Part shown: one piece after another, positions 24,970-43,895 of the stretch
How positions within the stretch are numbered: position 1 is the first letter of the stretch
Layout: each line of letters opens with the position of its first letter
Notes under the pieces: generated by a model
Database searches by the model: none
The model's input: only the letters and a program-made list of their open reading frames with translations
Told to the model about the DNA's origin: nothing
Program-made: the position numbers and the translations under genes
Assembly (NCBI GenBank): GCA_963817235.1
Contig: CAWFNS010000001.1
Span: 8,595 to 72,594 of the forward strand
Direction of reading: 5' to 3'
Length of the DNA stretch: 64,000 nt
Origin: an uncultured Actinomycetes bacterium
GTDB lineage: Bacteria > Actinomycetota > UBA4738 > HRBIN12

Positions 24970-25815
24970 CGCGATCGGCCCGGCGCCGGTCTCGGGCGGC
25001 ACGCGCACGGTCGGGCATCATCGGGTGGCCGGTCGAGCACAGCCTGTCCCCGGCGATCCACAACGCGGCGTTCTCGGCCCTGGCGCTCGATTGGATCTAC
25101 GTGCCGCTGCCGGTCCCGCCGGGATCGGCGTCGGCCGCGCTCGCGGGTCTCCGCGCGCTCGGCTTCGCCGGGGCGAACGTCACGATGCCGCACAAGGATG
25201 CCGCCGCCGAGGCGATGGACCAGCTCTCCGATGACGCGCGGCGCCTGCGCGCCGTCAACACCGTGGTGCTCGGCGCCGACGGGATGACCGGACACAACAC
25301 CGACGCGCCCGGGTTCGATCGGTTCCTGCGAGCGCGACGCGGGGTTCGAACCGGCGGGCAGGACCGCGCTGCTCTTCGGCGCGGGCGGCGCGGCGCGGGC
25401 GTGCGCGCTGGCGCTCGCGCGGGCCGAGCTCGCGCGCCTGACCGTGGCGGTGCGCGAGCCGGCGCGAGCGGACGCGCTCCGCGCGGCGCTCGACGGTCTC
25501 GCGACGGCCGTCGACGTCGTGCCGATCGAGGAGGCGCCCGGCCGTCCGGCCGACCTGATCGTGAACGCCACGCCCGTCGAGGTCGTCGCGAGCCTGCCGC
25601 CGGTCGGCGAGGACACCCTCGTGATCGACGTGCGCTACGACCCGCCGGAAACCGCGTTGCACACGGCGGCGCGCGCGGCCGGCGCGACGGCGTTCGGCGG
25701 CCTCGGCATGCTGTTGCACCAGGCGGCCCTCTCGTTCGAGCTCTGGACCGGCAGGCCGGCTCCGCTGGAAGTCATGTCGGCCGCCGCGCTGGCGGCCTCC
25801 GCCGGGCGCGGCTGA
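24962..25815 (+). CDS. aroE: shikimate dehydrogenase (frameshifts near 25015 and 25330; start approximate)
   Basis: IGWPVEHSLSP.IHN, NVTMPHK, AVNTV, NTD, GAGGAARA, VNATP, GMLLHQA. Confidence 0.92.
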
Positions 25816-25836
25816 ACGCACGGCAGCGCGCGTTCC

Positions 25837-25862
25837 CTCAAGCACGTGCGGCCTCCGCCGAT
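25837..25862 (+). promoter_or_regulatory. WhiG/FliA-type promoter CTCAAG-N14-GCCGAT
   Basis: matches the sigma28-family TAAA/CTCA...GCCGA pattern, 15 nt before ATG 25878; similar motifs at 31297 and 33919. Confidence 0.7.
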
Positions 25863-25877
25863 GCCTCGGGAAGAGGA

Positions 25878-26973
25878 ATGGACGAATATGCCGCGCTCGC
25901 TCAGCGCGTCGTCCTCACCATGGACGACGTGCGAGGTTGTTTGGTGCTGTCGAGGGACGGCATGGTCCTGGGCGCCTATCCGGAGGAGGACGAGCAGGCG
26001 TTCAAGCCGGCCTGGCTGAAGTTCGTCAACGTCGGCGAGGCTCGCCGAGGCTTCGTCGAGTTCTCCGATCAGATGTGGGCCTACGTCCATCGCGGGCCGT
26101 ACGCCGCGTTCGTCGTGTCGGGCACGGCGGTGCGTCCGGGCGTCCTGCTCGATCAGCTCGAGCAGGCGGTCCTCGCCGCCGAGGAGAGCCGCGCGAAGAA
26201 GGGTGACACCCTGAAGGTCCCCGACGCGCCCGGCGCACCGTCCGGGCGGCCGCGCACCTCACTGCATCCGCCGGCGGACCGGCCACAGGTCGCGCCGGCG
26301 ACCGCCGGGACGGCGCCGCCGCCGCAGGAACGCGCATGGGCCGGGGACCAGGCGGACATCGCCGGCGCACCGCCCCAGCGTCCGCTCGCGGACGTGGGCG
26401 CGGGTGGCGGCTCCGATCGTGCCGAGCCGCCGGAGCAACTGTCGGGGTGGCGCAGGCAGGCGCTGGCCGCCGAGCAAGGGCAGCGCGCCCCCGATCCCGT
26501 CCTGCCCCCGCCCGAGCAGCGGCCCCATCCGGACGAGATCCCGCCCCCGGACGTGACGCCCGCCGAGGCCGCCCGGATGGCCGCCCGCGAGACCGAGGAC
26601 GCAACGGCCGGCGGCCGTCCGACCGCGTTCGGGTCGGAGTCCTCGCCGTTCGCTCGCCTGGAAGCCGAATCCGCCGCCGCGGCGCTCGGGAGCGCCGGTC
26701 CGGCGGCCGTCGCCCCGCCCCCCGTCGCGCCCGCGCCGATCCGCGAGGCGCCGCCGGTCGAGATCGTGGCTCCGGCATATGCGGAGGAGCCCGCCGTCGA
26801 GGTCGAGATCCGGCGCGAGCCGCATCGAGCTCGTGTCCCCCGATCGGACGATGGACGAAGGACCCGGGGGCGACGACGAGGACGAGCTCGGCGAGGTCGA
26901 CCGCGTGATGCTGGCCAAAGAGTTCTCGGGATTGCTACAGGCAGATGGGGACGGTGACGAAGAAATCACCTGA
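25878..26973 (+). CDS. Roadblock/LC7 (MglB-like) domain protein with Pro/Ala-rich linker and acidic C-terminal motif (frameshift near 26820)
   Basis: N-terminal VRGCLVLSRDGMVLG resembles the Roadblock core; AAGAGG RBS; C-terminus DELGEVDRVMLAKEFSGLL in the shifted frame. Confidence 0.6.
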
Positions 26974-27018
26974 AGACCCCAGCCAACGGCCTAGCCCGAA
27001 CGGAACCTCGAGGGCGAG

Positions 27019-28710
27019 ATGACGACGGTCAAGCGGAAGTCGAAACAGCTCGGCCAGATCCTCATCGAGCTCGGGTACATCACGCCCGAGCAACTCGAGT
27101 CTGCGCTCGAAGAACACCGCAAGACGCCGAAGTCGCTCGGCCGCGTGCTGATCGACCTGGGGATGATCAAGGAGTCGGATCTGGTCCGCGCGCTCGCGGA
27201 GCAGGTCGGGCTCGAGTTCGTCGATCTGAGCGAGTTCCCGGTCGACGCGACCGCGACCGTGCTCCTGCCGGAATCGCTCGCCCGCCGGTACCGCGCGCTG
27301 CCGATCGGCGAACGCGACGGCCGTCTCCTGGTGGCGATGTCGGATCCCGCGAACGTCTACGCGCTGGACGACATCCGCACGATCACCGGCCGCGACGTCC
27401 AGCCGGTGGTGGCGACCGCGAACGACGTCGAACACGCGATCCAGAAGTTCGCCGGCCTCGACTCGCAGGTCGAGGCGATGGCCGACATCCTCGCCGAAGT
27501 CGGGCGACACCGAGAGCACGGAGGATCTCGAGGCGGCGCTCGAGGACGCGCCGATCGTGAAGCTCGTGAACGCGATCATGACGCAGGCGGTCGGCGACCG
27601 CGCCTCGGACGTGCACCTCGAGCCGGCGGAGCGGAACGTGCGTATCCGGTTCCGCGTCGACGGCGTCCTGCACGAGCCGATGCCGCCGGCGCCGAAGAAC
27701 ATCCAGGGCGGCCTCATCAGCCGCTTGAAGGTCATGGCCGACATGAACATCGCCGAGAAGCGCGTGCCCCAGGACGGCCGGATCTCGATGAAGGTCGGCG
27801 GAACCGCGCTGGACCTGCGTGTCGCGACGCTGCCGACCGTCTACGGCGAGAAGGTCGTGATCCGCGTGTTGGACAAGTCGAACGCGCTGCTGCGGCTGGA
27901 GGACCTCGGCTTCCTCGAAGACTCGTACAAGCGGTTCTCGGTGTCCTTCAAGAAGCCGTACGGGGCGATCCTCGTCACCGGGCCGACCGGGTCGGGGAAG
28001 TCGACCACGATGTATTCGACGCTCAACATCCTGAACGAGGAGTCGAAGAACATCATCACCGTCGAGGACCCGGTCGAGTACCGGCTGGCCGGCGTCAACC
28101 AGGTCCAGGTCAACCCGAAGGCCGGGCTCACGTTCGCCTCGGCGCTCCGCTCGATCCTGCGCGCCGACCCCGACATCGTGCTGATCGGTGAGATCCGGGA
28201 CAAGGAGACGGCCACGATCGCGATCGAGGCCGCCCTCACCGGCCACCTCGTGCTGTCCTCGCTGCACACGAACGACGCCGCCTCGGCCATCACGCGCCTG
28301 GTCGAGATGGACGTCGAGACGTTCCTGGTGGCCTCCGCGATCGACGCGGTGGTCGCGCAACGGCTCGCGCGCATGCTGTGTGAGCGCTGCAAGCAAGGCT
28401 ACGCAGCCGGAGCAGGCCGAGCTCCAGGCGGCCGGCTACCCCGAATGGCTGTGGAACGAGGTGCCCGCAGCTGTGGAAGTCGCAGGGGTGCCCGGCCTGC
28501 TCGAACACCGGCTACCGGGGCCGGATCGGCCTCTACGAGGTGATGCAGATGAGCGAAGAGATCGAACGGCTCACGGTGGAGCGTTCCTCTGCCGATGCAG
28601 TCAGAGAGGTCGCCATCCAGCAGGGCATGATGACGCTCCGCGAGGACGGCCTCGAGAAGGCACGGATGGGGATCACATCATTGGACGAGGTCGCAAGGGT
28701 GGTGAAGTGA
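27019..28710 (+). CDS. pilB: type IV pilus assembly ATPase with MshEN-like N-terminus (about 3 frameshifts)
   Basis: ASDVHLEP, RVPQDGR, GPTGSGKSTT, EDPVEY, LRADPD..LIGEIRD, CxxC...CxxC Zn motif, GYRGRIG. Confidence 0.94.
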
Positions 28711-28712
28711 GG

Positions 28713-29942
<1,230 letters not shown>

Positions 29943-29956
29943 GGGGGTGAACGGGG

Positions 29957-31163
29957 ATGGCTGAAACCTACGCCTACAAGGTCCGCGACAAGGGCGGCCA
30001 CGTCGTCACGGGCACGCTCGTGGCGGACAACGAGGCCCTCGTCCTGCAGCGCCTCCGCGAGCAGGGCTACACGCCGCTCGAGGTCGGCCGGCAGAAGCGC
30101 GGGATGAACATCGAGCTGACCAAGAAGAAGGTCAAGCTCAAGGAGATCGCCGTCTTCTCGCGGCAGTTCGCGACGATGGTCAACTCCGGCCTGCCGATCC
30201 TGCGGGCCCTCGCGATCCTGTCCGAGCAGACCGAGAACAAGGAGCTCGCCCGGGTCCTCACGGTCGTTCGGGCCAGCGTCGAGCAGGGGTCGTCGCTGTC
30301 CGCCGCCCTCGCGAAGCACCCGAAGATCTTCAACGACCTCTACGTCTCGATGGTGAAGTCCGGTGAGACCGGCGGCTCGCTCGACAGCGTCCTGCTCCGG
30401 CTCGCCGACATGATCGAGACCGAGGTCAAGCTGCGCGGCAAGATCAAGGCGGCCATGACGTATCCGGTCGCGGTCGTCGCGCTGGTCAGCTTGATCCTGA
30501 CCGCGATGCTCCTGTTCGTGGTGCCGCAGTTCAAGAACATCTACGCCGGGCTCGGCGGCAGCCTGCCGCTGCCGACGCGGATGCTGATCGGCGTGTCCGA
30601 CATCTTCAAGAACTTCTGGTACATCGTGCTGATCGGGCTGATCGTCGGCCGGTTCATGTTCCGGCGCTGGCGCAAGACGCCCGCCGGCCGCGAGGCGGTC
30701 GACGGCATGAAGCTGCGCGTGCCGATCTTCGGACAGCTGTTCCACAAGAGCGCGCTCGCCCGGTTCGCCTCGACCCTGTCGATGCTGCTGCGCTCGGGCG
30801 TGCCGATCCTCCAGTCGCTCGACATCGTGAGCGACACCGTGAACAACAAGGTCATCTCGAAGGCGATCACGGACGTGCAGGCGAGCGTCCGCGACGGTGA
30901 GTCGATGGCGAAGCCGCTCGCGCGCTACCGGGTCTTCCCGCCGATGGTCGTGCAGATGCTCGCGGTCGGGTGAGGAGACCGGCCAGGTCGACGTGATGCT
31001 CGAGAAGGTGGCCACGTTCTACAACGACGAGGTCGAGGCCTCCGTGGACTCCCTGACCTCCTTGATCGAACCGCTCTTGATCGCGGTCATCGGTGGCGCC
31101 GTGGGCGCCGCGGTGGTCGCCCTCTACATGCCGATGTTCAACATCATCAAGCTGATCCAGTAG
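29957..31163 (+). CDS. pilC: type IV pilus platform protein, GspF family (frameshift near 30970)
   Basis: FSRQFATMVNSGLP, GETGGSLD, VGEETG, EPLLI, LYMPMF. Confidence 0.94.
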
Positions 31164-31187
31164 GGCTACGGTCAGGTGGGGTCTTCG

Positions 31188-31216
31188 GGGCCCGGGGCGT
31201 CACGCGCCCCGGGCCC
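31188..31216 (+). terminator. GC-rich hairpin after pilC (12-bp stem, 5-nt loop)
   Basis: GGGCCCGGGGCG / CGCCCCGGGCCC perfect inverted repeat; no long U tract. Confidence 0.6.
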
Positions 31217-31296
31217 TTCCCACGTCCGCCCTGCGGCGGAACGCGTCCGCCCTCATCGCCACCTTCCGCCTTCTCCCCTCTTCTTCCTCGGGGGAG

Positions 31297-31323
31297 CTAC
31301 AGGTGGGGGCACCTTCGACCGAA
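31297..31323 (+). promoter_or_regulatory. WhiG/FliA-type promoter CTACAG-N15-ACCGAA
   Basis: same geometry as the 25837 and 33919 motifs with mismatches, upstream of the major pilin. Confidence 0.5.
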
Positions 31324-31383
31324 ACCTCCTTGGAACGCGCACCACGGGGGTGCGCCAAGCTCCAGGAAAGGAGGCGAAGGCAG

Positions 31384-31875
31384 ATGCTCAAGGGACTCAT
31401 GAAGCGCGTCCATGAGGACGAAGGCTTCACCCTCATCGAGCTGATGGTGGTCGTTCTGATCATCGGCATCCTGATCGCCATCGCTCTGCCGACGTTCCTC
31501 GGCGCCCGGACGCGTGCGCAGAACCGTGCCGCGCAGTCGGATCTTCGCAACACGCTCGTTGCTGCGAAGACCATCTACACGGACGCCAGTTCGTACACCT
31601 GTGCCACGGGCGCGGCCGCGGTCGCTCCGTGCACGCAGAACCTGCAGAGCGTCGAGCCGTCGCTGAACTACGTGGCCGGCGCCGCAGGCAGCGTCACCAC
31701 GCAGGTGGGCGTCTCGGTGGTCTCCGCCACGCAGTGGGCGGCGGGTCGCTGGTCCGCATCGAACAACTGCTTCTACATCTCCGATGACTCGGCGGTGGGC
31801 ACGAAGTACGGCCAGGCCGCAGGCGCCTGCGTCGCGCCGACCATGGCGCTCGCAGCCGCGGCGAGCTGGAGCTAG
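31384..31875 (+). CDS. pilA: major type IV pilin 1
   Basis: class III signal EDEG|FTLIELMVVVLIIGIL with Glu5; strong AAGGAGG RBS; 4 Cys. Confidence 0.9.
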   Translation: MLKGLMKRVHEDEGFTLIELMVVVLIIGILIAIALPTFLGARTRAQNRAAQSDLRNTLVAAKTIYTDASSYTCATGAAAVAPCTQNLQSVEPSLNYVAGAAGSVTTQVGVSVVSATQWAAGRWSASNNCFYISDDSAVGTKYGQAAGACVAPTMALAAAASWS

Positions 31876-31887
31876 ACGGCGAACGCC

Positions 31888-31948
31888 CGGCTCCTTCGGG
31901 GGCCGTGGTTCACCGAGAACGAGGGGGCGGCCTTCGGGCCGCCCCTTC
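31888..31948 (+). terminator. two tandem cUUCGg hairpins between the pilin genes
   Basis: CGGCTCC-TTCG-GGGGCCG (31888-31905) and GAGGGGGCGGCC-TTCG-GGCCGCCCCTTC (31921-31948). Confidence 0.7.
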
Positions 31949-32000
31949 GCTCATCAGGCTCCGATCACCGAGCGAGGCGATGGAAGGAGGCGATGGCAGC

Positions 32001-32486
32001 ATGCTCACGGCGTTCCGGAAGCGCGTCCGGCAGGACGACGGCTTCACCCTGATCGAGCTGATGGTCGTCGTCCTGATCATCGGCATCCTCATGGCGATCG
32101 CGCTGCCGACGTTCCTCGGCGCCCGGACCCGGGCGCAGGACCGGGCGGCGCAGTCGGACCTGCGGCACGCCCTCGTCGCCGCGAAGATCCTCTTCGCGGA
32201 CGGCAGCTCCTACGCGTGCGCGACGGCTCCTCCGGCCACGGCTCCGTGCGTCCAGAACCTGAAGGACGTCGAGTCGTCCCTGACGTACCAGGCGGCCGCG
32301 GTCGGGAGCACGCCGAACCGCGTCGGCGTGGCGGTCCTGTCGACGACGCAGTGGGCCGCCGCCCGCTGGTCGACGTCGAACACCTGCTTCTACATCTCCG
32401 ACGACTCGGCGGCCGGCACCCGCTACGGGCAGGCCGCCGGCGCCTGTGCCGTTCCCGCCGCCCAGGTGGCTTCCAGCTGGTCGTAG
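32001..32486 (+). CDS. pilA: type IV pilin 2, paralog of the upstream pilin
   Basis: QDDG|FTLIELMVVVLIIG; aligns end to end with pilin 1, including all 4 Cys; AAGGAGG RBS. Confidence 0.88.
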   Translation: MLTAFRKRVRQDDGFTLIELMVVVLIIGILMAIALPTFLGARTRAQDRAAQSDLRHALVAAKILFADGSSYACATAPPATAPCVQNLKDVESSLTYQAAAVGSTPNRVGVAVLSTTQWAAARWSTSNTCFYISDDSAAGTRYGQAAGACAVPAAQVASSWS

Positions 32487-32502
32487 CGCCCGGCCGCCAT
32501 CC

Positions 32503-33825
32503 CTAGAGCGGCCACCGAGGGAGCAGCCGGAGCCCGTCCGCCCACGTGCGCGGGATCCACACCCCGGTCCACACCGGCGCGTACGCCAGCCCGACGACGA
32601 TGGTCGCGGCCGCGAACGCCATCCCCACGCCGCGGCTCCATCCTCCCGGCAGCCGACGGAGCGTGGCCGCCAGGCACAGGCACATGAACGGGACGGCGGG
32701 CAGCATGTAGAAGATGAACTGACTCCGGGAGACGAGGAGCCAGGGCAGGAACATCGCCGCGTACCCGCCGAACGCCACCGCCTCCTGCCAGCGAGGGCGC
32801 CGGAGCGCCGTGAACGCCGCGACCGGCAGCGACAGCAGGAACCCCCACCAGAGCACCGGGTTGCCGAGCGCGACGATCTTGCTGACCGACGTGCCCCGGG
32901 TCTCGGCGAAGTACTGGATCGGATGCAGCAGCAGCGGCCAGGTCCACGGGCGCGAGTTCTCCGGCTGCACCTTCAGGTGGTGCTCCTGGTACTGGAGCAT
33001 CCGGATCTGCAACGTCACGAAGTCGTGCACGGCGAACCCGTGCTGGGAGAAGAAGGCGCCGTAGCTGACGAGGTAGACCAGCAGCGGCACGACCGCCAGC
33101 GACAGCACGATCGTCGCGACCTCTCGCGCGCGCGACCGATCCCGGGGTCCGTCGCGCCGGAGGCTCCACACGGCGCACAGCAGCACCGCCAGCGCCAGCG
33201 CGTAGAAGCCCGACCACTTCGTCGCGATCGCCGCCCCGAAGGCGACGCCCGCCCACAGGCGCCACGGTGAGCCGAAGGCCCGCGTGGTCCGGGGCCACCG
33301 CGTCGCGGCGGCCCGACCGAGCCGCTCGCGGTCCAGGACGAGGAACAGGAACCCGGCGATGATGAAGGTCGACAGGAAGATGTCGAGCATCGCCAGCCGG
33401 CTCTGGACGATGTGCAGGCCGTCGAACGCGAGCAGGACCGCCGCGAAGGCCGCCCACCCAGGGGATCCCCACAGGCGCAGGGCCAGCAGGTAGAGCAGGG
33501 CGACGCCCGCGATCCCGAACAGCGCCGAGGGGAGCCGCCAGCCGAACGCGTGCAGGCCGAGCGGCCCCACCCCCAACAGCGCGATGATCCATTTCCCCAT
33601 CGGCGGGTGGATCCACGTCCCCTCGTCGTCGATCTTGACCGGCGGCGGGTTGCCGACCGGCTGGCCGAACCCGCCATGCAGGTAGACCTCCGCGTCGAAC
33701 ACGTAGTACTGCTCGTCCCAGTACAGGCTCGGCGGGGACGGCAGCGACCACAGCCGCAGGACGGCCGCCGCCAGCAGGATCAGGCACGGGAGGGCGAGCC
33801 GCCGCCAGCCTCGGTCCTCGCCCAT
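32503..33825 (-). CDS. pmt: PMT-type (GT39, GT-C fold) lipid-linked-sugar protein O-glycosyltransferase
   Basis: YWDEQYY, HPPMGKW, GWR, DGLHIVQSRLAMLDIF, ATKWSG, S.PW.WP, GNP.LWW, QFIFY.LP; many TM helices. Confidence 0.85.
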   Translation of the reverse strand: MGEDRGWRRLALPCLILLAAAVLRLWSLPSPPSLYWDEQYYVFDAEVYLHGGFGQPVGNPPPVKIDDEGTWIHPPMGKWIIALLGVGPLGLHAFGWRLPSALFGIAGVALLYLLALRLWGSPGWAAFAAVLLAFDGLHIVQSRLAMLDIFLSTFIIAGFLFLVLDRERLGRAAATRWPRTTRAFGSPWRLWAGVAFGAAIATKWSGFYALALAVLLCAVWSLRRDGPRDRSRAREVATIVLSLAVVPLLVYLVSYGAFFSQHGFAVHDFVTLQIRMLQYQEHHLKVQPENSRPWTWPLLLHPIQYFAETRGTSVSKIVALGNPVLWWGFLLSLPVAAFTALRRPRWQEAVAFGGYAAMFLPWLLVSRSQFIFYMLPAVPFMCLCLAATLRRLPGGWSRGVGMAFAAATIVVGLAYAPVWTGVWIPRTWADGLRLLPRWPL

Positions 33826-33918
33826 GGCGACATCCTGGCATGGGCGCCCGCGCCGCCTCGGAGGTCTCGCGTCCCTCGGACGCGGTCCGGCGGCCCGTCG
33901 CAGGACCTCGGTCGACCC

Positions 33919-33945
33919 CTCAAGGGGACCCCCCGGCCTGCCGAC
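33919..33945 (+). promoter_or_regulatory. WhiG/FliA-type promoter CTCAAG-N15-GCCGAC
   Basis: near-identical to the 25837 motif, ahead of the minor pilin operon. Confidence 0.7.
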
Positions 33946-33978
33946 CACTAAGTGACGGACAGTGACAGGCGGGCCCAG

Positions 33979-35337
33979 ATGACGCGCGTACTCCAACAGC
34001 TGCGTTCCGCCTCGCGCCGCTCGGGCGACGAGGCGGGCTTCACGATGGTCGAGATGATGATGGCCATCTTCATCTTCGGCCTCGTCATCACGGGCCTCGC
34101 GGTCGGCATGGCGAGCTCGCTGAACCTGACCCGCCAGAACCGGAACCGGTCGATCGCCGCGAACCTGGCGTCCCAGCAGATGGACACGGTCCGGAGCATG
34201 GACTTCGACGACCTCAACAACGTCACGCAGCAGGCGCAGCCGACCACCTCGAGCACGAGCGTCGACGGCGTCCCCTACACGCTTCTCGCAGTACACGCGG
34301 TGGGTCTACAAGAGCGAGACCGGCGCGACCCCGGGGCCGTGCCAGGCGCCGCCCAGCACCGCGAACCCGCTCGCGTACATCTCCGTCGTGACCTCGGTCA
34401 GCTGGAACGACATGCGCGGCGTGCCGCCGGTGACGTCGAGCACGGTCGTGACGCCGCCGGTCGGGATCTACGACCAGACCGACGGACACATCGCGGCGAC
34501 GGTCCTGACCCGCGACGGTGCGCCGGCCCCCGGCGTCACGGTGTCGATCGCGTCGACCGGGGTCTCCGACGCCGCCATCACCTCGAGCGACGGCTGCGCG
34601 TTCTTCGCGTTCGAGCCGATCGGGACCTACGTGGTCACCCTGTCCGGGCGCGGGCATGGTCGACGGGCAGGGGCAACGCGGCGCCGCCCCAGACGGTCAC
34701 CGTGAAGGCCGGCTCGACGAGCACCGTCCAGTTCCAGTACGACTCCGCCTCCTCGCTCGTCCTCACGCTGCAGGGGAACGGGGGCTTCTCCGTGCCGAAC
34801 GCGGTGCCGATCTCGCTCGGCAACACGCACCTGCTGCCGCTCGGCGTGATGCCGGCCACCGGCTCCGGGAACCCGCGGACGATCACCGGCCTGTTCCCGT
34901 ACGCGGACGGCTACCAGACCTGGGCGGGCGCCTGTTCCGACGCCGATCCGCAGGGCGTGAGCCCTCTGGGCAGCGCCTACTACCCGGGCGCGACCCGCTC
35001 CGCCGCGATCGTCATGACGCCGGGCCAGAGCAGCACCGGCACCGTGCAGCTGCCGGCCCTCCAGGTCACGGTCAAGAAGAGCGGCGTCTTGAAGTCGGGC
35101 TACGCGGTGACGGCGACGCACGTCGTGCCTTCGGGCGCGACGAGCGACCCGGGGTGTCCGACCGCGGAGGCGTACACGCTCGGCACGAGCAACGGGAGCG
35201 GCCTGGTCTCGATGGCGCTGCCCTACGGCACGTGGAAGATCACGGCGACGAGCGGCGCGAGCACCGGCAACGCGAACGTGACCCTCAGCCCGCTGAACGC
35301 GAACAACCCGGCCGCACTCACGGTGAACGTCTCGTGA
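33979..35337 (+). CDS. minor pilin (PilV-like) with C-terminal Ig/carboxypeptidase-regulatory-like beta domains (frameshifts near 34280 and 34645-34675)
   Basis: DEAG|FTMVEMMMAIFIFG class III signal; downstream G.P.PGVTV and T...GCAFF...GTY.V beta-sandwich-like motifs; start could be GTG 33952. Confidence 0.75.
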   Translation: MTRVLQQLRSASRRSGDEAGFTMVEMMMAIFIFGLVITGLAVGMASSLNLTRQNRNRSIAANLASQQMDTVRSMDFDDLNNVTQQAQPTTSSTSVDGVPYTLLAVHAVGLQERDRRDPGAVPGAAQHREPARVHLRRDLGQLERHARRAAGDVEHGRDAAGRDLRPDRRTHRGDGPDPRRCAGPRRHGVDRVDRGLRRRHHLERRLRVLRVRADRDLRGHPVRARAWSTGRGNAAPPQTVTVKAGSTSTVQFQYDSASSLVLTLQGNGGFSVPNAVPISLGNTHLLPLGVMPATGSGNPRTITGLFPYADGYQTWAGACSDADPQGVSPLGSAYYPGATRSAAIVMTPGQSSTGTVQLPALQVTVKKSGVLKSGYAVTATHVVPSGATSDPGCPTAEAYTLGTSNGSGLVSMALPYGTWKITATSGASTGNANVTLSPLNANNPAALTVNVS

Positions 35338-36170
35338 AGCGCCTCGCGCAGCTCTTGCATCGGGCCGACGCCCAGGACGGCGTCACGCTCGTCGAGCTCG
35401 TGGTCGTCATCTCGATCATGTCGGTGGTGCTCACGTTCGTCACCAAGACGTTCATCGTCATGGAGAACGCCTCGGCCGGCGAGAACCTCCGCCTGCAGAA
35501 CCTCGACGAGGCGCGGACGCTGATGGACGACGTGTCGAAGGACGTCCGCACGGCGGCCCGGATGACGCCGACGACCTCGCCCTTCGACGTGACGGCCTGC
35601 ACGGCGACGTCGCCGGCACAGACGCAGCCGTGCGCGCCCACCGGATGGGTCAACGGGAACGCGGCGCCGTACACCGCGAACCAGGAGATGTGGTTCTACG
35701 CGAACCTCACGCTGACCGAGAACGCCACGGCGACCGCGTGCCCCGACATCATCCACCTGTTCGTCGACACGTCCCAGACCCCGCCGATCCTTCGCGAGCA
35801 GGTGATCTCCGACGCGAACCCCGCGACCGACGCGCCACCGAACTGCGTGTACGGCACGCTCTCCGGCGGGGTCTACAGCGGCACGTACGCGACCCGGATC
35901 GTCGGCAAGTACATCGCGAACGCGACCACGAACTGCCCGTCGAGCAGCCAGGTCTTCACGTACTGGTACGACGACGCGAACGGGGTCCCGACCGCGTTCC
36001 TGGCCACGGACACGCCGCTGGATGCCGGTGAGCGGATCCAGGTGAACGCGGTCGGCATCGCGTTCTCGGTGCGCCAGCAGACGAACTACACGGTGCCCTG
36101 CACGACGCTCGTCAACCGCGTCCGGCTGGCGAACGTCGAATACAACCCGATCCCGAGCCCGAGCCCATGA
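35334..36170 (+). CDS. minor pilin (PilW-like)
   Basis: AQDG|VTLVELVVVISIM with Glu5; DVSKDVRTA helix; GTGA overlap with the previous gene. Confidence 0.8.
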   Translation: MKRLAQLLHRADAQDGVTLVELVVVISIMSVVLTFVTKTFIVMENASAGENLRLQNLDEARTLMDDVSKDVRTAARMTPTTSPFDVTACTATSPAQTQPCAPTGWVNGNAAPYTANQEMWFYANLTLTENATATACPDIIHLFVDTSQTPPILREQVISDANPATDAPPNCVYGTLSGGVYSGTYATRIVGKYIANATTNCPSSSQVFTYWYDDANGVPTAFLATDTPLDAGERIQVNAVGIAFSVRQQTNYTVPCTTLVNRVRLANVEYNPIPSPSP

Positions 36171-37953
36171 CCGCGCCATCCCTGCACCGGCTGCACCGGC
36201 GACTTCGCGCCGACGGCGAGGAGGGCGTCGCCCTCATCACGGTGCTGCTCGTCACGTTCGTGCTGCTGATCCTCGTGGCCAGCACGATGGCCTACGCGAT
36301 CGGCTCGATGCCGATCTCGCGCCGCGACCAGGACTGGAACGCGGCGCTCACGGCGGCCGAAGCCGGCCTGGACGACTACCTGTACCGCCTGAACCAGAAC
36401 GACCAGTACTACCTCTACGGACAGCACCCGCCGCCCGCCACGGGCACCTGCGGCGCCTACCCGACGCTGGCGGCGCCGCCCGGACGGCAACCCCGCCTTC
36501 ATCGAGCTGGGTGCCGGTCCCCGGCTCCTCGACGGGCGCCACGTTCCGCTACAGCGTGGACACGTCCTGCCTGGTGACCCAGGGCGCGATCGTCGTGTGG
36601 GCGACCGGGAAGTCCGGGACCTCGACGCGGACCGTCCAGGCCACGTTCCGCCGGCGCTCGTTCATCGACTACCTGTACTTCACCGACTACGAGACGACCG
36701 ATCCCGCGGCCTATCCGGTGGGGTCCTTCAACTCGAACAACTCGGCCTGGGCCCAGGCCAACTGCGCGCAGCACTGGTACGAGGGCCGGCCCGGCGGGCC
36801 CCCCTACGACAACAGCCACTGCGTCGACATCAACTTCTCCTCGGGCGACGTGATCAACGGCCCGTTGCACTCGAACGACGCGATCCTCGTCTGCGGGAAC
36901 CCCACGTTCAACGGCAACGTGACCACGAGCTGGCAGGGAGCCGGGACGCCCGTGAAGCGGTACCGCACGAACTCCGGCTGCTCGAACAACAACCCGACGT
37001 TCGCCCGGGCGGGGGACCCGAAGTACGCCGACCCGCTCACGATGCCGCCGAGCAACCTGTCGATGAAGTCGAGCGCGGACGCGACCCTGGCCGGCGCCGG
37101 CTGCCTGTTCACCGGGCCGACCTCGATCACGCTGAACTCGACCGGCACGATGACGGTCGTGAGCCCGTTCACGAAGTGGCCGGCGGCCCCGAACAACTGC
37201 CAGCCGGGCACGAACATCCCGCTCCCGTCCAACGGCGTGATCTACGTCCAGAACGTCCCGGCCTCCTCGAGCGATCCGAACTACACCGCGAGCTGCATCA
37301 CCTCCACGCAGCTCGGCGGGACCGCGACGGTCCAGCACCCGCTCGGGTACCCGCAGAAGTACGACATCTCGCAGTACGGGTGCATGAACGGCGACGTCTT
37401 CCTGAAGGGCACGCTGAAGGGACGGCTGTCGATCGCGGCCGACAACAACATCGACATCATCGGCAACGTGACGTACCAGGGCGGCACGGGCGGCAGCGAC
37501 CTGCTCGGCCTGGTGGCGAACAACTACGTCGAGATCTACCACCCGGTCGGCGACTGTGGCTCCGGGAGCGCACCGTGCGACAACGGGAGCAAGAACAACG
37601 GGTACTACAACCTCGACGACGTCGCCGGCGGCCTGACGACCTCCTTCAACAACCCCACGATCCAGGCGGCGATGCTGTCGGTGAGCCACTCGTTCCGGGT
37701 GCAGAACTACCAGTACGGAGACGACACGCCGCTCGGGACGATCACCGCCTACGGCGCGATCGCGCAGAAGTACCGCGGCACGGTCGGCACGAGCGGGTCG
37801 TCCGGGTACACGAAGAGCTACTCCTACGACCAGCGCATGAAGTACCAGTCGCCGCCGTACTTCCTGAACCCCGTCGCGGCGGCGTGGCAGATCGTCACGT
37901 GGATCGAGTGCAAGGGATCGAGCTCCGGCAGCGTCCCCACGACGTGCCAGTGA
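36167..37953 (+). CDS. large PilX/GspK-like minor pilin (frameshift near 36480-36505)
   Basis: EEG|VALITVLLV lacking Glu5, A..AAEAGL motif of the PilX N-terminus; ~590 aa with a Cys/Gly/Asn/Thr-rich C-terminal region. Confidence 0.8.
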
Positions 37954-38001
37954 TGCCGGGCTCCCGGAACCCCGCCTGAGCGCGCGTACGATCGGCCGGC
38001 C

Positions 38002-38778
38002 GTGGAGACCGCCTTCCGAGCGTTCGTCGCCGCCCTGTTCGGCTTCGCGTTCGGCAGCTTCCTGACCGTCGTCGTCGACCGCGTCCCGAACAAGGAGTCG
38101 ATCGTCCGGCCCCGGTCCCGGTGCCCGGGCTGCGGCACGCCGATCGCGCCGCGCGACAACATCCCGGTCCTGTCGTACCTGCTCCTGCGGGGCCGGTGCC
38201 GGACGTGCGGGATGCGGATCCCGGTGCGATACCCGTTGCTGGAGCTCGCCACCGCGGCCGCGTTCGCCGGCACCGCCGCGGTCTGGACCTCGCCCTACCT
38301 CATCGTGCTCCTGTGCGCGTTCTGCGCGGTGATGCTGGCCGTGGCCGCGATCGACCTCGAGCGACGGATCATCCCGAACCGGATCACGTACCCGTCGTTC
38401 GTCGCGTTCGCCGCCCTGATCGCGCTCGGCTGGGCGCTCGGCCAGGAGCTGAACCCGGCAGGCGCGGCGATCGGCGCGCTCGCCTACGGCGGCTTCTTCC
38501 TCGTGATCGCGCTGATCGCTCCCGGCGGCATGGGCATGGGGGACGTGAAGCTGACCGGCCTGATCGGGCTCGTGCTCGGCGCGCTCGGCCTTCGGTACGT
38601 GGCGGTCGCCGCCGGCATCGCGATCCTCCTCGGCGGGATCGCGGGCCTCGGCGCGCTGGCCGCCGGACGCGGCCGCAAGGGTGCGATCCCGTTCGGCCCG
38701 TCCCTCGCGGCCGGCGCGATCGCGGCGGTGCTGGTGGGGGAGCGGCTCGCCTCGTGGTACCTGGGCTCCGTCACCTGA
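38002..38778 (+). CDS. pilD: prepilin peptidase/N-methyltransferase (A24)
   Basis: FGSFL.VV..R, RSRCPGC, DNIPVLSYLLLRGRCRTC, IDL..RIIPN, GMGDVKL, IPFGP. Confidence 0.95.
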   Translation: METAFRAFVAALFGFAFGSFLTVVVDRVPNKESIVRPRSRCPGCGTPIAPRDNIPVLSYLLLRGRCRTCGMRIPVRYPLLELATAAAFAGTAAVWTSPYLIVLLCAFCAVMLAVAAIDLERRIIPNRITYPSFVAFAALIALGWALGQELNPAGAAIGALAYGGFFLVIALIAPGGMGMGDVKLTGLIGLVLGALGLRYVAVAAGIAILLGGIAGLGALAAGRGRKGAIPFGPSLAAGAIAAVLVGERLASWYLGSVT

Positions 38779-38844
38779 GCGCCCTGCTCCGCGTTCTCCG
38801 GCCGCCCCCTCGGAAGCCCCGAAACTCGTTGCCCCAGATGTTTG

Positions 38845-38863
38845 ACTAGGTCTGCCCCCTAGT
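38845..38863. promoter_or_regulatory. dyad ACTAGG-N7-CCTAGT, putative operator
   Basis: perfect 6-bp inverted repeat containing CTAG, in a relatively AT-rich intergenic stretch. Confidence 0.4.
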
Positions 38864-38890
38864 GTTTCGTAGGCACGCTCGCTGAGCTCT

Positions 38891-38952
38891 ATGTGGCTCA
38901 TGAGTACGGATGTGGCACATGTGGCACATGAGGAACATGTGCCATGTGGAGC
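38891..38952 (+). repeat. array of seven ~9-bp direct repeats, consensus ATG(T/A)GGCAC
   Basis: ATG-initiated units at 38891, 38900, 38910, 38919, 38928, 38937, 38944. Confidence 0.75.
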
Positions 38953-38974
38953 ACGGCAGCAGGACGGTGAGAGG

Positions 38975-39184
38975 GTGAGCGAACCGCAGGCGTTCGTGAC
39001 CGGTGGCGGCCTCCTGACGGTGGCCGAGGTCGCGGCGGCGATGCGCGTGTCGAACATGACGGTGTACCGGCTGATCAAGAACGGCGAGCTCCCCGCGGTA
39101 CGGGTCGGGAAGAACTACCGGCTGCGTGACGCGGACCTCCATCGCTTCCTCGAGGAGCGCTCGGTCCACGTGGAGGATCGGTAG
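38975..39184 (+). CDS. small excisionase/MerR-like HTH DNA-binding protein (BdtA/Rv0500A-like)
   Basis: LLTVAEVAAAMRVSNMTVYRLIKNGELPAVRVGKNYR; GAGAGG RBS before GTG 38975; stop abuts pilM. Confidence 0.85.
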   Translation: MSEPQAFVTGGGLLTVAEVAAAMRVSNMTVYRLIKNGELPAVRVGKNYRLRDADLHRFLEERSVHVEDR

Positions 39185-40231
39185 ATGGCGAAAGGCCGCA
39201 TCGGGCTCGACATCGGGTCCACCGCCGTGCGCGCCGCCGAGCTGTCGGTCAGCCGGCAGCCCTCCGTCGTGCGCGCCGGTCAGGTCCCCCTCCCGCCCGA
39301 CGCCGTCGAGAACGGCGAGGTCCGCGATCCCCTGGCCGTCACCGACGCGATCCGCCAGCTCTGGAGCGACGTCGGCTTCAAGAACCGGCAGGTCTGGCTC
39401 GGGGTGGGCAACCAGCGGGTCGTCGTCCGCGAGATCGCGCTGCCGTTCCTGCCCGAGAAGGAGCTGCGCGCCTCGCTCGGCCTGCAGGTGCAGGAGTTCA
39501 TCCCGATGTCCGTCGACGAAGCGGTCCTGGACTACGACCCCATCGGCGAGTTCGAACAGGACGACCGCAAGATGCTCCGGATGCTGCTCGTCGCGGCGCA
39601 ACGCGTCATGGTCGATCAGGTCGTGCAGGTCGTGACGGACGCGAAGCTGGAGCCGCTCGGCCTGGACCTGATCCCGTTCGCGCTCGTGCGCGCGATCGGC
39701 ACCCCGGACGTCTCGATGGACCTCGAGGACACGGGCGAGGAAGCCATCATCGACGTCGGCGCCCACGTGACGAACATCGTGGTGCACAGCCGGGGAGCCA
39801 CGCGGTTCGTCCGGATCCTCCCGAGCGGCGGCCGCGACGTGACCGTCGCGATCGCTCGCTCGATCGGCGTCGACGACGACGTGGCGGAGCGACTCAAGCG
39901 CGGCGAACCGGTCGAGGGCGCGCCCGCGCCGCAGCAGGTTCGCCAGGTCGCCCTGCAGCGCGCCGCGGCGTTCGTCGATGAGATCCGGTCGTCGCTCGAG
40001 TTCTACACGGCGCAGGCGCGCGAGGCCCGGATCTCGAAGGTGCTCGTCACCGGCGGCGGCTCGCGTCTCGAGGGCCTCCTCGAGCTGATGCGGCAACGCA
40101 TCCCGGTGCCGGTCGAGCCCGGCCGTGTCTTCCAGCAGCTCCCCTCCGAGTTGCCGGAGGACGCCGCGGCGGACGCCGAGCCGGTGCTCGCCGTCGCCGT
40201 GGGTCTGGCGATCCCGGGGGTCGACCGGTGA
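39185..40231 (+). CDS. pilM: type IV pilus alignment protein, actin-like
   Basis: IGLDIGSTAVR, QVQEFIP, IIDVGA..TN, VTGGGSRL.GL. Confidence 0.93.
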   Translation: MAKGRIGLDIGSTAVRAAELSVSRQPSVVRAGQVPLPPDAVENGEVRDPLAVTDAIRQLWSDVGFKNRQVWLGVGNQRVVVREIALPFLPEKELRASLGLQVQEFIPMSVDEAVLDYDPIGEFEQDDRKMLRMLLVAAQRVMVDQVVQVVTDAKLEPLGLDLIPFALVRAIGTPDVSMDLEDTGEEAIIDVGAHVTNIVVHSRGATRFVRILPSGGRDVTVAIARSIGVDDDVAERLKRGEPVEGAPAPQQVRQVALQRAAAFVDEIRSSLEFYTAQAREARISKVLVTGGGSRLEGLLELMRQRIPVPVEPGRVFQQLPSELPEDAAADAEPVLAVAVGLAIPGVDR

Positions 40232-40864
40232 GCCAGGTCAACCTCCTTCCCCCCGATATCCTGCAGGGGCAGCGCTACCGCCGGGTGACCGGCCTCGTGG
40301 TGCTGGCCGGGCTGGCGATCATCGGGCTGATCATCCTGTTCTACCTGCTCCAGGTGGGACGGCTCGCCTCGGTGAACAGCGATATCGACGCGCAGCAGGC
40401 GACGAACGCCCAGTTGAACACCGAGATCTCCGACCTGTCGAAGTACGAGAACCTGCAGGCGGAGGCCCAGCAGCAGCAGCAGCTCTTGAACGACGCGTAC
40501 GCGGGCGAGGTGTCGTACTCGGGACTCATGATGGACATGTCGCGCGTGATCCCGAGCGACTCCTTCCTGTCCGCCCTCTCGGTCACGACGCCCGGCGCCA
40601 CCGCGTCCACGACGACGACGCCGACGACGACCACCACGCAGTTCATCGGCTCGATGACCTCGAGCGGCGAGGCGATCGGCTTCGACACCCTGAGCCAGTA
40701 CCTGACGAACCTCGCCGGCGTCACCGGGATGGGAGAACCCGTGGATGCCGACGATCACCGCCGACACCGACATCAAGAACGCCTACCAGTACACGACCAG
40801 CGTCGATCTGAGCACGGCGGCCGAGACCGCCCGCGGACGGGGTGGGGTGACGACCGGTGGGTAG
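40228..40864 (+). CDS. pilN: PilN-family protein (frameshift near 40730)
   Basis: VNLLPP N-terminal motif, TM helix, coiled coil, IP...L..L core. Confidence 0.85.
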
Positions 40865-41492
40865 CCGCCGCGCCCCGATCATCGCCGCGGTCGGCGTGGT
40901 GATCGTCGCGATCCTGTTCTTCCTGATCCTCGTCCTGCCGAAGATGCACTCGGTCTCGGACGCGCAGGACCAGCTCGACCAGGCGCACCAGCAGCAGACG
41001 ACGCTGGAGGTCCGCAAGGCCGCCCTCGAGCAGGCGAAGCTCGACGCCCCGAAGAACCAGCACGTGATCAACAACGTCCACAAGCGGATCCCGCCGATCG
41101 CGGACGAGCCCGGCTTGATCCAGCTGCTGAACGGCGCGGCGGTGAGCGCCGGCATCGAGCTCGTGTCGCTGACGCCGAGCAACCCCGTGTTCGACGCGAC
41201 CACCGGCCTGTCGACGATCACGGTCGCCGTGAGTGCGACCGGGTCGTACTTCGACATCACGCAGTTCATGTTCAACATCGAGACGCTGCCGCGGGCCGCC
41301 GTGGTCACCACGCTGACGCTCGCGCCGGTGGATCAGACGTCCGCCGAGCCGGTCCTGACGATGTCCGCGACCGTCAACACGTTCACCAGCGACTCGAGCG
41401 CGGGCCCCGGGTCGGAGCCGGGACCGACCCAGAGCACGGGCGGTACCTCGACGGGCTCCACGACCACCGGGACCACCGGGGTGGCGACCTAG
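40857..41492 (+). CDS. pilO: PilO-family protein
   Basis: TM helix, coiled coil, IP..ADEP.LI..L, GSYFDI.QF...IE.LPR. Confidence 0.85.
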   Translation: MGSRRAPIIAAVGVVIVAILFFLILVLPKMHSVSDAQDQLDQAHQQQTTLEVRKAALEQAKLDAPKNQHVINNVHKRIPPIADEPGLIQLLNGAAVSAGIELVSLTPSNPVFDATTGLSTITVAVSATGSYFDITQFMFNIETLPRAAVVTTLTLAPVDQTSAEPVLTMSATVNTFTSDSSAGPGSEPGPTQSTGGTSTGSTTTGTTGVAT

Positions 41493-42086
41493 ATGCCGTT
41501 GGCCGACCGCGATCGACGCACCCTGATCATCGGAGGCGTGATCGTCGGCGTGCTCCTGGTCGGGCTGCTGCTGTTCACGCTCTTGAGCGGGGGAGGCGGC
41601 AACGAGGCGCTCCCGTCGTTCCCGCCGCCCGGCTCGCCGCCGCCGAGCGCCGCGCCGAGCACGACCCCGACGACCGTGCCGCACCCGGTCGCGCCGTTCT
41701 CCGGCAGGGATCCCTTCTCGAAGCCGGGCGCGTTCCTCACGGCTTCCTCGAGCAGCGGGTCGCCGACCGGCTCACCCACGAGCGGCTCGGGGAGCGGCTC
41801 CGGGACCGGCACCCCGTCGTCGTCCAGCTCGAGCCCACCACCCACGCAGCCGGGCAACGGGTCCTCCGAGTCGGTCGGCGGGCATCAGGTCGTCCTGCTC
41901 GACACGTTCCGGGTGAACGGACAGACGCGCGCACAGGTCGAGATCGACGGGACGGTCTACAACGTTTCGGTCGGGGAGAGCTTCGGGCCGGGCAACCGGT
42001 ACGAGCTCCGATCGGTCTCGGGCGACTGCGCCACGTTCTTGTTCGGGGACGAGTCCTTCACGCTCTGCACCACGCCCCAGAAGTAG
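41493..42086 (+). CDS. PilP-like membrane-anchored protein
   Basis: position after pilO; TM anchor, Pro/Ser linker with GRDPF motif, short C-terminal beta domain (AQVEIDG..Y.V..GE.F). Confidence 0.55.
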
Positions 42087-42144
42087 GAGACGTTCGCGGA
42101 GCGGAGCTCCGGCGGCCCGCCCACGGGGGGAGCGGTCGCCGGCC

Positions 42145-42176
42145 GCGAGGGCGGTCCCGACAGGGGCCGCCCTCGC
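42145..42176 (+). terminator. 14-bp hairpin closing the pil operon
   Basis: GCGAGGGCGGTCCC-GACA-GGGGCCGCCCTCGC (one G-U pair). Confidence 0.65.
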
Positions 42177-42252
42177 ATCGTCCGCGCTTGCCCGTGCTCG
42201 CCGGCGCTCGCCGGCCCCGGGGCGGCGGGTGCCGGTGCCTAGAATGGGCCGC

Positions 42253-43401: not shown

Positions 43402-43895
43402 TCGTCTACCTGGTCGGCATGCCCGGATCGGGCAAGACCACCGTCGGTCGCGAGGTCGCCGGGCGGCTCGGCGTGCCGTTCGTCGATCTGGACGCGGAGG
43501 TCGAACGCACCGCGGGGCGATCGGTGCCGCAACTGTTCGAGGAACGCGGCGAGGATGCGTTCCGGGCGCTCGAGGCGCGAGCGCTCCTGGACGTCTCGCG
43601 GCACGATCCCTCGGTCGTCGCGTGCGGCGGCGGCGTGGTGCTGGAGCCGGCCAATCGGGTCACCCTTCGGAACACGGGCGTCTGCGTGTTCGTCGATGTG
43701 CCGCTCGAGCAGCTCCGCGAGCGCGTCCGCCCTGCCGCCGACCGGCCGCTGATCCGCGCCGACGGGGATCTGGAGCGGCTCCTCGCGGCCCGCGAGCCGC
43801 TGTACCGGGAGTTCGCGGCACACGTGGTGGACGGGAGCGGCTCGCCGAAGGGGGTCGCCGACGCGATCCTCGAGGAGCTGCGGTGGAGCGCGTGA
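43398..43895 (+). CDS. aroK: shikimate kinase
   Basis: [31 protein letters not shown]. Confidence 0.94.

Follow-up and report, generated by a model that had tools for sequence, protein, structure and literature searches.

Type IVa pili (T4aP) that operate without a secretin have been reported from the Actinobacteria by surveys (PMC6668835; PMC6916266). The pili of Actinoplanes zoospores have been characterised, and Kimura et al. (2019), as cited in PMC8325347, assign to those of Actinoplanes missouriensis a role in adhesion and a transcription directed by FliA/WhiG-like sigma factors. For Rubrobacter radiotolerans, Schumacher et al. (2021; PMC8325347) place a pil cluster with three promoters under a (RsiG)2-(c-di-GMP)2-WhiG switch, in which WhiG is held by RsiG together with cyclic di-GMP (c-di-GMP). 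Here we describe a pil locus from an uncultured actinobacterium of soil, found in a stretch of 64,000 nucleotides (the window; G000:C1:8595-72594) of a metagenome-assembled genome (MAG) of 13 contigs and about 70% G+C. We think it likely that this locus encodes a working monoderm T4aP, made up of the familiar core, transcribed from WhiG-type promoters and fitted with three lineage-specific additions, and that the breaks in its reading frames are errors of the assembly.

The core machine is common in the phylum and already known, and is therefore not new: in a phylum-wide sample of 301 species, 212 have the PilM_2 domain. T4aP are thus present in roughly 70% of the sampled Actinomycetota species, yet they are almost unstudied. 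The first-pass annotation of this DNA, made from the letters alone, had listed the WhiG-type promoters among its novel traits; the secretin-less actinobacterial T4aP and its control by WhiG and c-di-GMP through three promoters in the cluster had already been published (PMC6668835, PMC8325347, bioRxiv 10.64898/2026.01.14.699351). What is new is a set of co-conserved, undescribed accessories: a PMT glycosyltransferase, a BldC-like regulator with its repeats, a Roadblock protein and a PilP-like protein. The locus yields four testable hypotheses on how a monoderm T4aP is built and controlled, pairing the PMT enzyme with a one-residue pilin tail, the BldC-like protein, which would be produced jointly with PilM, with the repeat array on which it may form a filament, the Roadblock protein with the motor ATPases alongside which it would be produced, and the PilP-like protein with a machine that has no secretin. 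None of the four alters the basic picture of the pilus machine.

The aroE-aroC pil locus and the integrity of its genes

Genes were read from frames with a G+C third-position signal and from scans with Pfam and NCBIfam. Their order is yceG, aroE, the Roadblock-like gene, pilB, pilT, pilC, pilA1, pilA2, the PMT gene, three minor-pilin genes, pilD, a helix-turn-helix (HTH_17) gene, pilM, pilN, pilO, the PilP-like gene, aroC, aroK, aroB and aroQ, with the PMT gene alone on the - strand and all others on the + strand (Table 1). The T4aP core of PilB, PilT, PilC, PilD and PilMNO was recovered in full by the domain scans, and the pilins carry class III signal peptides (N_methyl). The inventory drawn up in the first-pass annotation, which also lists two pilins, three minor pilins and a PilP-like protein, is thus confirmed, and its placement of the locus between aroE and aroC is borne out by the gene scan. 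Several of the core proteins were scored on intact orthologues. In the closest relative, G004, the PilT orthologue (99% identical) reaches 488 bits against a cut-off of 319 for TIGR01420 (pilT_fam), and the PilB orthologue falls just short of TIGR02538 (659 bits, cut-off 676); the intact PilN orthologue lies barely above the PF05137 cut-off (22.9 against 22.8 bits). The motif GIRNLIRE is present in PilT. Minor pilin 1, of 451 aa in the intact orthologue, joins a PilV-like N-terminus to a CarboxypepD_reg-type beta domain, and the PilX_N-headed minor pilin, a single open frame in G004, measures 594 aa in the intact orthologue.

No secretin PilQ (PF00263) was found in the source genome, in agreement with the first-pass annotation, or in 23 of 24 relatives, as would be expected of monoderms. 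A gene with a secretin domain occurs in one order-level relative (G032:C21:14188-14676); it may be contamination or a lineage-specific extra. We also note that the last 45 or so residues of PilT form a Ser/Gly-rich tail (29800-29939 of the window), which is unusual among PilT proteins and differs in length between relatives, and that Rfam gave no match anywhere in 25000-43000. At its downstream end the locus passes from pilMNO(P) directly into aroC-aroK-aroB-aroQ (39185-45402), which suggests a very old neighbourhood. The linkage pilMNOPQ-aroK-aroB is known in Proteobacteria, and the arrangement here echoes it.

As the window stands, several of these genes are interrupted and read in two or three frames. 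An alignment of 20 kb was made with G004 (94% identical; DATIWE010000024.1) and G012 (84% identical), the two closest relatives, and it showed full collinearity with G004. Eleven single-base insertions (Table 1) break the Roadblock-like gene, pilC and pilN once each, the PilX-like gene twice, and pilB and minor pilin 1 three times each; all are +1 insertions, and none is present in G004 or G012. Eleven breaks within 16 kb could mean that the cluster is a decaying pseudogene array, with genuine frameshifts in pilB, pilC, pilN and the minor pilins and no pilus made any longer, and the completeness score of 76%, low for a genome of only 13 contigs, may be counted on the same side. Few contigs with low completeness are, however, the usual outcome of indel-rich long-read assembly. 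Every gene of the locus is intact in G004 (pilC, for instance, as an unbroken frame of 401 aa), and between the breaks the window products are 88-100% identical to their G004 counterparts, without stops or deletions. To judge from the two relatives and the flanking housekeeping genes, the breaks are almost certainly assembly errors, because +1 insertions are equally dense in the essential neighbours, with two in aroE (25012 and 25331) and one in alaS (23435), at about 0.7 per kb inside the locus as outside it, and because they are absent from the relatives. We rejected the pseudogene array on these grounds and hold it to be very improbable. An error of the same type, the insertion at 23435 relative to G004, makes alaS-ruvX read as one open reading frame of 1017 aa (20807-23860).

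The T4aP locus is real and probably functional. The first-pass description of the system as complete stands after the eleven likely assembly insertions are corrected, and fails for the window genes as they are, with their broken frames. When proteins of G004 were compared by tblastn with 96 related loci, the yceG-aroE-pil-aroC layout was recovered in about 90 loci of several classes, in the order-level clade of the source and also in Acidimicrobiia, Frankiaceae, a Mycobacteriales MAG, Kineosporia babensis and others. Such wide synteny fits the suggestion, made in the first-pass annotation, that this may be an ancestral intact state. The co-conservation of the accessories with the pil genes was checked as well: it holds for the Roadblock, HTH and PilP-like genes, while the PMT gene is absent from most same-genus relatives and yet is always pil-embedded within its own clade.

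Table 1. Coordinates of genes, promoters and other features in and around the pil locus, as positions in the window.
Feature	Position	Strand	Evidence and remarks
aroE	25011-25815	+	Pfam/NCBIfam
Predicted sigma-28/WhiG-type promoter P1, ahead of the Roadblock-like gene	25837-25863	+	CTCAAG-N14-GCCGATG; motif and conservation
Roadblock/LC7-fold protein, 362 aa	25878-26973	+	Predicted fold; frame broken by 1-nt insertion at 26827
pilB, extension ATPase	27019-28710	+	PF05157 MshEN and PF00437 T2SSE; 1-nt insertions at 27500, 28403, 28467
pilT, retraction ATPase	28713-29942	+	PF00437; Ser/Gly-rich C-terminal tail
pilC, platform protein	29957-31163	+	T2SSF twice, one in each piece of the open reading frame; 1-nt insertion at 30971
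Predicted sigma-28-type promoter P2, ahead of pilA1	31297-31325	+	CTACAG-N15-ACCGAAAC; motif and conservation
Conserved stem-loop, pilA1 5' untranslated region	31337-31355	+	RNAalifold on 17 relatives: 7 pairs, 3 with compensatory changes
pilA1, major pilin, ends ...ASWS	31384-31875	+	N_methyl motif
pilA2, second pilin, paralogue of PilA1, ends ...SSWS	32001-32486	+	Leader MLTAFRKRVRQDDG/FTLIELMVV
GT39/PMT membrane glycosyltransferase, 440 aa	32503-33825	-	PF02366 E=3e-24; PF16192 (PMT_4TMC) E=8e-19
Predicted sigma-28-type promoter P3, ahead of the minor-pilin operon	33919-33947	+	CTCAAG-N15-GCCGACCA; motif and conservation
Minor pilin 1	33979-35337	+	N_methyl; 1-nt insertions at 34281, 34644, 34674
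Minor pilin 2, 278 aa	35334-36170	+	N_methyl motif
Large PilX_N-headed minor pilin, candidate tip protein	36167-37953	+	PilX_N and weak DUF4900; 1-nt insertions at 36482, 36502
pilD, prepilin peptidase (A24)	38002-38778	+	PF06750 (A24_N_bact) and PF01478 (Peptidase_A24)
TTGACT box and about seven 9-bp direct repeats (ATGTGGCAC-like, 38892-38953)	38843-38953	+	TRF and relatives' sequences
Excisionase/BldC-like winged HTH protein, 69 aa	38975-39184	+	HTH_17
pilM	39185-40231	+	PF11104 (PilM_2), E=6e-46
pilN, N-terminal NLLP motif	40228-~40865	+	PF05137; 1-nt insertion at 40724
pilO	40857-41492	+	PF04350, E=4e-13
PilP-like protein, 197 aa	41493-42086	+	Transmembrane anchor, GRDPF motif, Ser/Thr/Pro linker; predicted HR-type beta domain at the C-terminus, holding two conserved Cys
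aroC	42253-43401	+	Pfam/NCBIfam

Four accessories of the pilus

The PMT gene converges on pilA2 and, at its other end, diverges from the minor-pilin operon. Its product, a glycosyltransferase already named as such in the first-pass annotation, matches both PF02366 and PF16192 and carries the acidic PMT motif WDEQYY (loop 1) at residues 36-41. The neighbouring pilA1 and pilA2 share about 76% nucleotide identity, and the pilin leader ends in DEG directly before FTLIELMVV. In Pseudomonas aeruginosa, TfpO/PilO glycosylates group I pilin at its C-terminal Ser148, and group IV pilins are the substrate of TfpW, a GT-C enzyme. We tentatively propose that the GT39/PMT clade found here would be a dedicated type IV pilin O-glycosyltransferase acting on a Ser or Thr added after the terminal Trp, a possibility to which we give somewhat less than an even chance. 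Of the 14 pilins from loci with the PMT, 11 have W-S or W-T at their end, as against one of 67 in loci that lack it; among the latter, 48 of 67 end at the conserved Trp itself. The alternation of Ser and Thr at the pilin end suggests selection for a hydroxyl group. The protein database holds many homologues of 57-68% identity, and in all four contigs that we read (L109-L112) the gene is embedded in a pil locus at the identical position, on the opposite strand, with the pilins to one side and the minor pilins to the other. Indeed, the clade of 57-98% identity is pil-embedded in every member examined, and the enzyme is in this respect a dedicated paralogue, always in pil loci among those members.

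It could also be argued that the enzyme is a general protein O-mannosyltransferase that merely happens to lie in the locus, serving many secreted proteins with no special link to the pilin. Its gene is on the opposite strand and hence outside the pil operon; among the fetched GTDB relatives it is present only in G004 and G012, and the pilus of most same-genus relatives is not accompanied by the gene; and actinobacterial GT39 enzymes are of broad specificity. Yet the genome has another PMT copy elsewhere, 32% identical to the one in the locus, members of the 57-98% clade all sit at the same spot whereas the next clade, at 51%, is found elsewhere (one such homologue lies beside secDF-relA), and the presence of the gene tracks the extra C-terminal Ser/Thr of the pilins. 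We regard a general role as unlikely. The proposal of a dedicated pilin glycosyltransferase has difficulties of its own. The protein scores 118 bits against the housekeeping Pmt equivalog NF058602, far under the cut-off of 800, and the association of PMT with W-[ST] may be a single ancestral event. There is also one sole exception to the association: the pilin near 11510 in L105 (MAG Ww353) ends in GGWS, and no PMT was seen in the 14.6 kb fetched for that locus. If the proposal is true, GT39/PMT would constitute a further independent family of pilin-glycosylating enzymes beside TfpO/PglL and TfpW, and the change from W-stop to W-S/T-stop would predict glycosylated pili from sequence alone.

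The stop codon of the HTH gene abuts the ATG of pilM, a pairing that reaches the Acidimicrobiia and holds in loci of several classes. The protein exceeds the cut-off of the excisionase-family domain model TIGR01764 (67 against 29 bits), and in the PDB it is related only to the BldC-DNA complexes 6ama and 6amk (E=1.5e-3). BldC binds direct repeats with one protomer per 9 bp (PMC5859096). Upstream of the HTH gene, between a conserved TTGACT box and the ribosome-binding site, lies an array in which TRF detects 4.7 copies of period 9 (38910-38949). When the best autocorrelation lag was determined for the 200 nt upstream in 33 distinct loci, it was 9 in 22 of them and 18 in three, as compared to 9 in 7 of 102 shuffles, and across the relatives the 9-bp period is kept while the sequence drifts. 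These comparisons support an Xis/BldC-like regulator with a predicted operator of 9-bp direct repeats, much as the first-pass annotation had it. In one acidimicrobial locus (L051), some 100 nt ahead of the HTH gene, six units of 12 bp (GAAGTCGGCTCG-like) take the place of the 9-bp array.

Two points qualify this assignment. Against the BldC model NF033787 the protein scores only 25 bits, below the cut-off of 77; a paralogue on contig C9 is likewise under it, and therefore neither copy can be called a BldC orthologue. The excisionase family being the best match, one might also take the gene and its repeats for the remnant of a mobile element, that is, an excisionase with att-like repeats, but the domain scans of the locus turned up no integrase, several classes have loci in which the gene abuts pilM, and the array holds its period while its sequence drifts. 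We rejected such an origin for these reasons and consider it extremely improbable. Among the papers that we searched, none links BldC with pili.

The first gene of the locus encodes a protein whose Roadblock fold is supported by structure prediction. It comprises an N-terminal domain of about 105 aa, a variable Pro/Ala-rich linker, the motif APSGKPRTSLHP and a C-terminal helix, EVDRVxLAKEFSGLLQ, with the conserved C-terminal motif EVDRVMLAKEFSGLLQ. The AlphaFold2 model, built from an alignment of 19 sequences, has a pLDDT of 83.5 and the order a-b-b-a-b-b-b-a, and Foldseek returns 30 PDB matches at E<=1e-3, mostly Roadblock/LC7 proteins, MglB, MglC, LAMTOR and dynein light chains, of which the top matches are all Roadblock/LC7, MglB or MglC. 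The sequence itself stays below the Pfam threshold, with E=0.13 and 12 bits against a cut-off of 23 for Robl_LC7 (PF03259), and its profile meets Roadblock proteins among the PDB sequences only at E 0.2-1.3; the Roadblock protein named in the first-pass annotation is hence upheld through its predicted fold. A hidden Markov model of the protein has matches in 35 loci, all within the order-level clade of the source and all with the gene placed between aroE and pilB; the 680 database homologues of the protein are all unnamed. In Myxococcus and Thermus, MglB is connected with the polarity of the pili. Domain scans, which were limited to the locus, revealed no MglA-type GTPase there.

The adjacent PilB carries tandem MshEN motifs of 24 residues at its N-terminus (residues 10-33 and 39-62, separated by a 5-residue spacer), and its G004 orthologue passes NF053729, the MshE-related model of the c-di-GMP motif, with 71 against 38 bits. 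Binding of c-di-GMP by PilB is therefore plausible as far as the motif goes. Less favourable to it, the canonical first Arg of both motifs is replaced, by Gln in one and Ser in the other, each following a Lys; this form without the Arg is common to actinobacterial PilB proteins. The MshEN-like PilB of the first-pass annotation thus survives as a tandem motif, and loses its standing as a distinctive trait, the motif being generic to actinobacterial PilB.

For the last gene of the locus, predicted structure likewise points to a protein with a PilP/GspC-like HR domain. AlphaFold2 gives residues 122-193 a pLDDT above 90, and Foldseek matches this beta domain to PilP (2lc4, 2ivw, 3jc8_Pa) and to the HR domain of GspC (3oss_C) with probabilities of 0.93-0.99 and a target TM-score of up to 0.74 (3oss_C); the E-values of these matches, at 0.2-0.3, speak less clearly for the assignment. 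Family profiles are of no help: there is no Pfam PilP match at E<=1 and no NCBIfam match at all, and the profile of the PilP-like family yields noise only against PDB sequences. Two of the homologues carry the database label PF27998. The DPF of the GRDPF motif is invariant and sits in the disordered linker, an N-terminal transmembrane helix takes the place of the lipobox, and the genome offers no secretin partner. A hidden Markov model of the domain places it after pilO in 34 loci from several classes, including Acidimicrobiia and Frankiaceae. The PilP-like protein proposed in the first-pass annotation is thus retained for its predicted HR-type fold and its place directly after pilO, with no family profile to match.

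Promoters and the proposed working of the pilus

Three sites in the cluster resemble WhiG-type promoters, as the first-pass annotation had noticed. About 30 related loci carry P1, with its spacing to the start codon unchanged even though the surrounding sequence has diverged, P2 is conserved in the form CT[TCA][CA]AG-N15-[GA]CCGA[ATC], and P3 is kept in the relatives, the distant ones of which carry the textbook GCCGATAA. The published WhiG consensus is T(A/C)AA-N16-GCCGATAA (bioRxiv 10.64898/2026.01.14.699351). All three predicted promoters fit it, including the central CGA, and their footprints are conserved at the three units. A FliA/WhiG sigma gene (TIGR02479, 267 bits against a cut-off of 190) is present in the source genome and in 23 of the 25 genomes searched, and the flagellar export gene FlhA was not found in the source genome. 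A fragmented FlhA gene occurs in one same-genus relative (G001:C3:395-2032); it may be contamination or a lineage-specific extra. Near whiG, at about 1.5 kb upstream, lies dprA (the pair at G000:C2:515879-516490 and C2:518021-518695), and the same pair is seen in G001, G004, G025 and G028.

Two results bear against control of this kind. A genome-wide search for CTCAA[GT]-N14-16-CGA[TC][GA] returned 18 sites, compared with 8-25 in permuted or mis-spaced controls, which amounts to no enrichment, and it is therefore conservation, rather than counting, that carries the case for the promoters. When the genome, which is incomplete and indel-rich, was searched in six frames for the RsiG motif E(X)3S(X)2R(X)3Q(X)3D or a relaxed form of it, nothing credible emerged, and the link from c-di-GMP to WhiG is therefore unsupported in this genome; of two RsiG candidates that were dropped, the first lies inside aroK and the second in a frame of low confidence. 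Looking for both regulators in the genome, as the first-pass annotation had advised, hence produced whiG and not rsiG. Simple scans for sigma-70 promoters and terminators found nothing above shuffled expectation. We conclude that WhiG-type promoter control is supported by motif and conservation, and that it is not new. In the 5' untranslated region of pilA1, a stem-loop GCGCACC-ACGGG-GGTGCGC, with no match in Rfam, lies between the sigma-28-type promoter and the ribosome-binding site, and it may be an mRNA-stabilising 5' hairpin.

With gene content, folds, conservation and motif positions in hand, we infer how the locus is transcribed, what binds its DNA, how the pilins are glycosylated, where c-di-GMP enters and what role the pilus has. 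A filament of PilA1 and PilA2 would be extended by PilB and retracted by PilT, and assembled on PilC and an alignment complex of PilM, PilN and PilO; the three minor pilins would prime it, and PilD would process the prepilins. A secretin would be dispensable because there is no outer membrane. Transcription would most likely be carried out by the WhiG/FliA-type sigma factor of the genome from the three promoters, one serving the Roadblock-like gene and pilBTC, one pilA and one the minor pilins through pilD. The unit formed by the HTH gene and pilMNOP would have a promoter of its own and would probably be autoregulated, the Xis/BldC-like protein binding head-to-tail to the 9-bp array. The dedicated GT39/PMT enzyme would O-glycosylate the Ser or Thr after the terminal Trp of the pilins, the Roadblock-fold protein, co-transcribed with the motors, would modulate them, and the membrane-anchored PilP-like protein would complete the PilNO complex without a secretin partner. 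It counts against this model that all relatives are uncultured and that it is built on sequence and predicted structure.

As to what the pilus is for, sequence does not tell adhesion, twitching and DNA uptake apart. The machine might be mainly a DNA-uptake (competence) pilus rather than an organelle of adhesion or twitching: T4aP with PilT drive DNA uptake in Thermus and Neisseria, and the source genome and its relatives have comEC and dprA, the latter next to whiG. The presence of both genes, for which the first-pass annotation had proposed to look, discriminates little, however, since they are near-universal and occur in non-competent control genomes too. No comEA or competence-specific minor pilin was identified, and the large adhesin-like minor pilins and three extra PilT paralogues suit surface behaviour equally well or better. 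We therefore find a mainly competence-related function rather unlikely, although uptake and surface roles are compatible and do not exclude one another. The three PilT/PilU-like ATPase genes outside the locus (G000, C6:454474-455517, C6:37757-38788 and C2:252477-253373) are 44-47% identical to the PilT of the locus.

Comparison with described pilus systems and regulators

Like BldC of Streptomyces (Schumacher et al., 2018, PMC5859096; PDB 6ama, 6amk), the HTH protein belongs to winged HTH proteins of 68-72 aa without an effector domain, and in both systems head-to-tail multimers are supported by direct repeats that offer 9 bp to each protomer, although binding is here a prediction. The repeat unit is ATGTGGCAC-like here and AATTNNNNC for BldC, the gene joins directly onto the front of pilMNOP instead of acting as a regulator of development, and the protein scores 25 bits against the required 77.

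The Roadblock-like protein shares the alpha-beta-beta-alpha-beta-beta-beta-alpha Roadblock/LC7 fold with MglB/MglC and CvnB (PDB 1j3w, 6h5b, 7ct3, 3kye, 3leq), from which it differs in its long disordered linker, in a conserved C-terminal helix of its own and in having no MglA-type GTPase in the locus. As for glycosylation, the gene of the glycosyltransferase directly adjoins a pilin gene both here and in P. aeruginosa. The candidate acceptor is, as for TfpO, a hydroxy-amino acid at the extreme C-terminus of the pilin, and the PMT enzyme is, like TfpW, a GT-C membrane protein dependent on a polyprenol-phosphate sugar. The family is different, GT39/PMT as opposed to a Wzy_C-type or Emb-like enzyme, and the modification is in our case predicted from sequence.

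With Rubrobacter radiotolerans (PMC8325347), the source organism shares the lack of flagella, a WhiG-type sigma factor, and three flagellar-type promoters inside the pil cluster that drive three transcription units. The -35 box reads CTCAAG or CTACAG here, and no credible RsiG match was obtained from our incomplete and indel-rich genome. Pil-linked genes for a PMT, a Roadblock protein, a BldC-like protein and a PilP-like protein are not described in the text of that report as far as it was consulted (PMC8325347). The pili of Actinoplanes missouriensis, to follow the citing account, have been characterised experimentally, and that organism is flagellated and forms sporangia.

With the T4aP of Streptococcus sanguinis and Clostridium (Pelicic, 2019, PMC6916266), finally, the locus has in common a single cluster holding PilB, PilT, PilC, PilD, PilMNO, pilins and minor pilins and no secretin. 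The same review puts PilP as absent from monoderms and calls that absence 'logical' (PMC6916266). In the present locus, and also in several other actinobacterial lineages, a predicted PilP/GspC-HR-like protein follows pilO, and a PilP-like protein without a secretin would run counter to the view that monoderms have no place for PilP.

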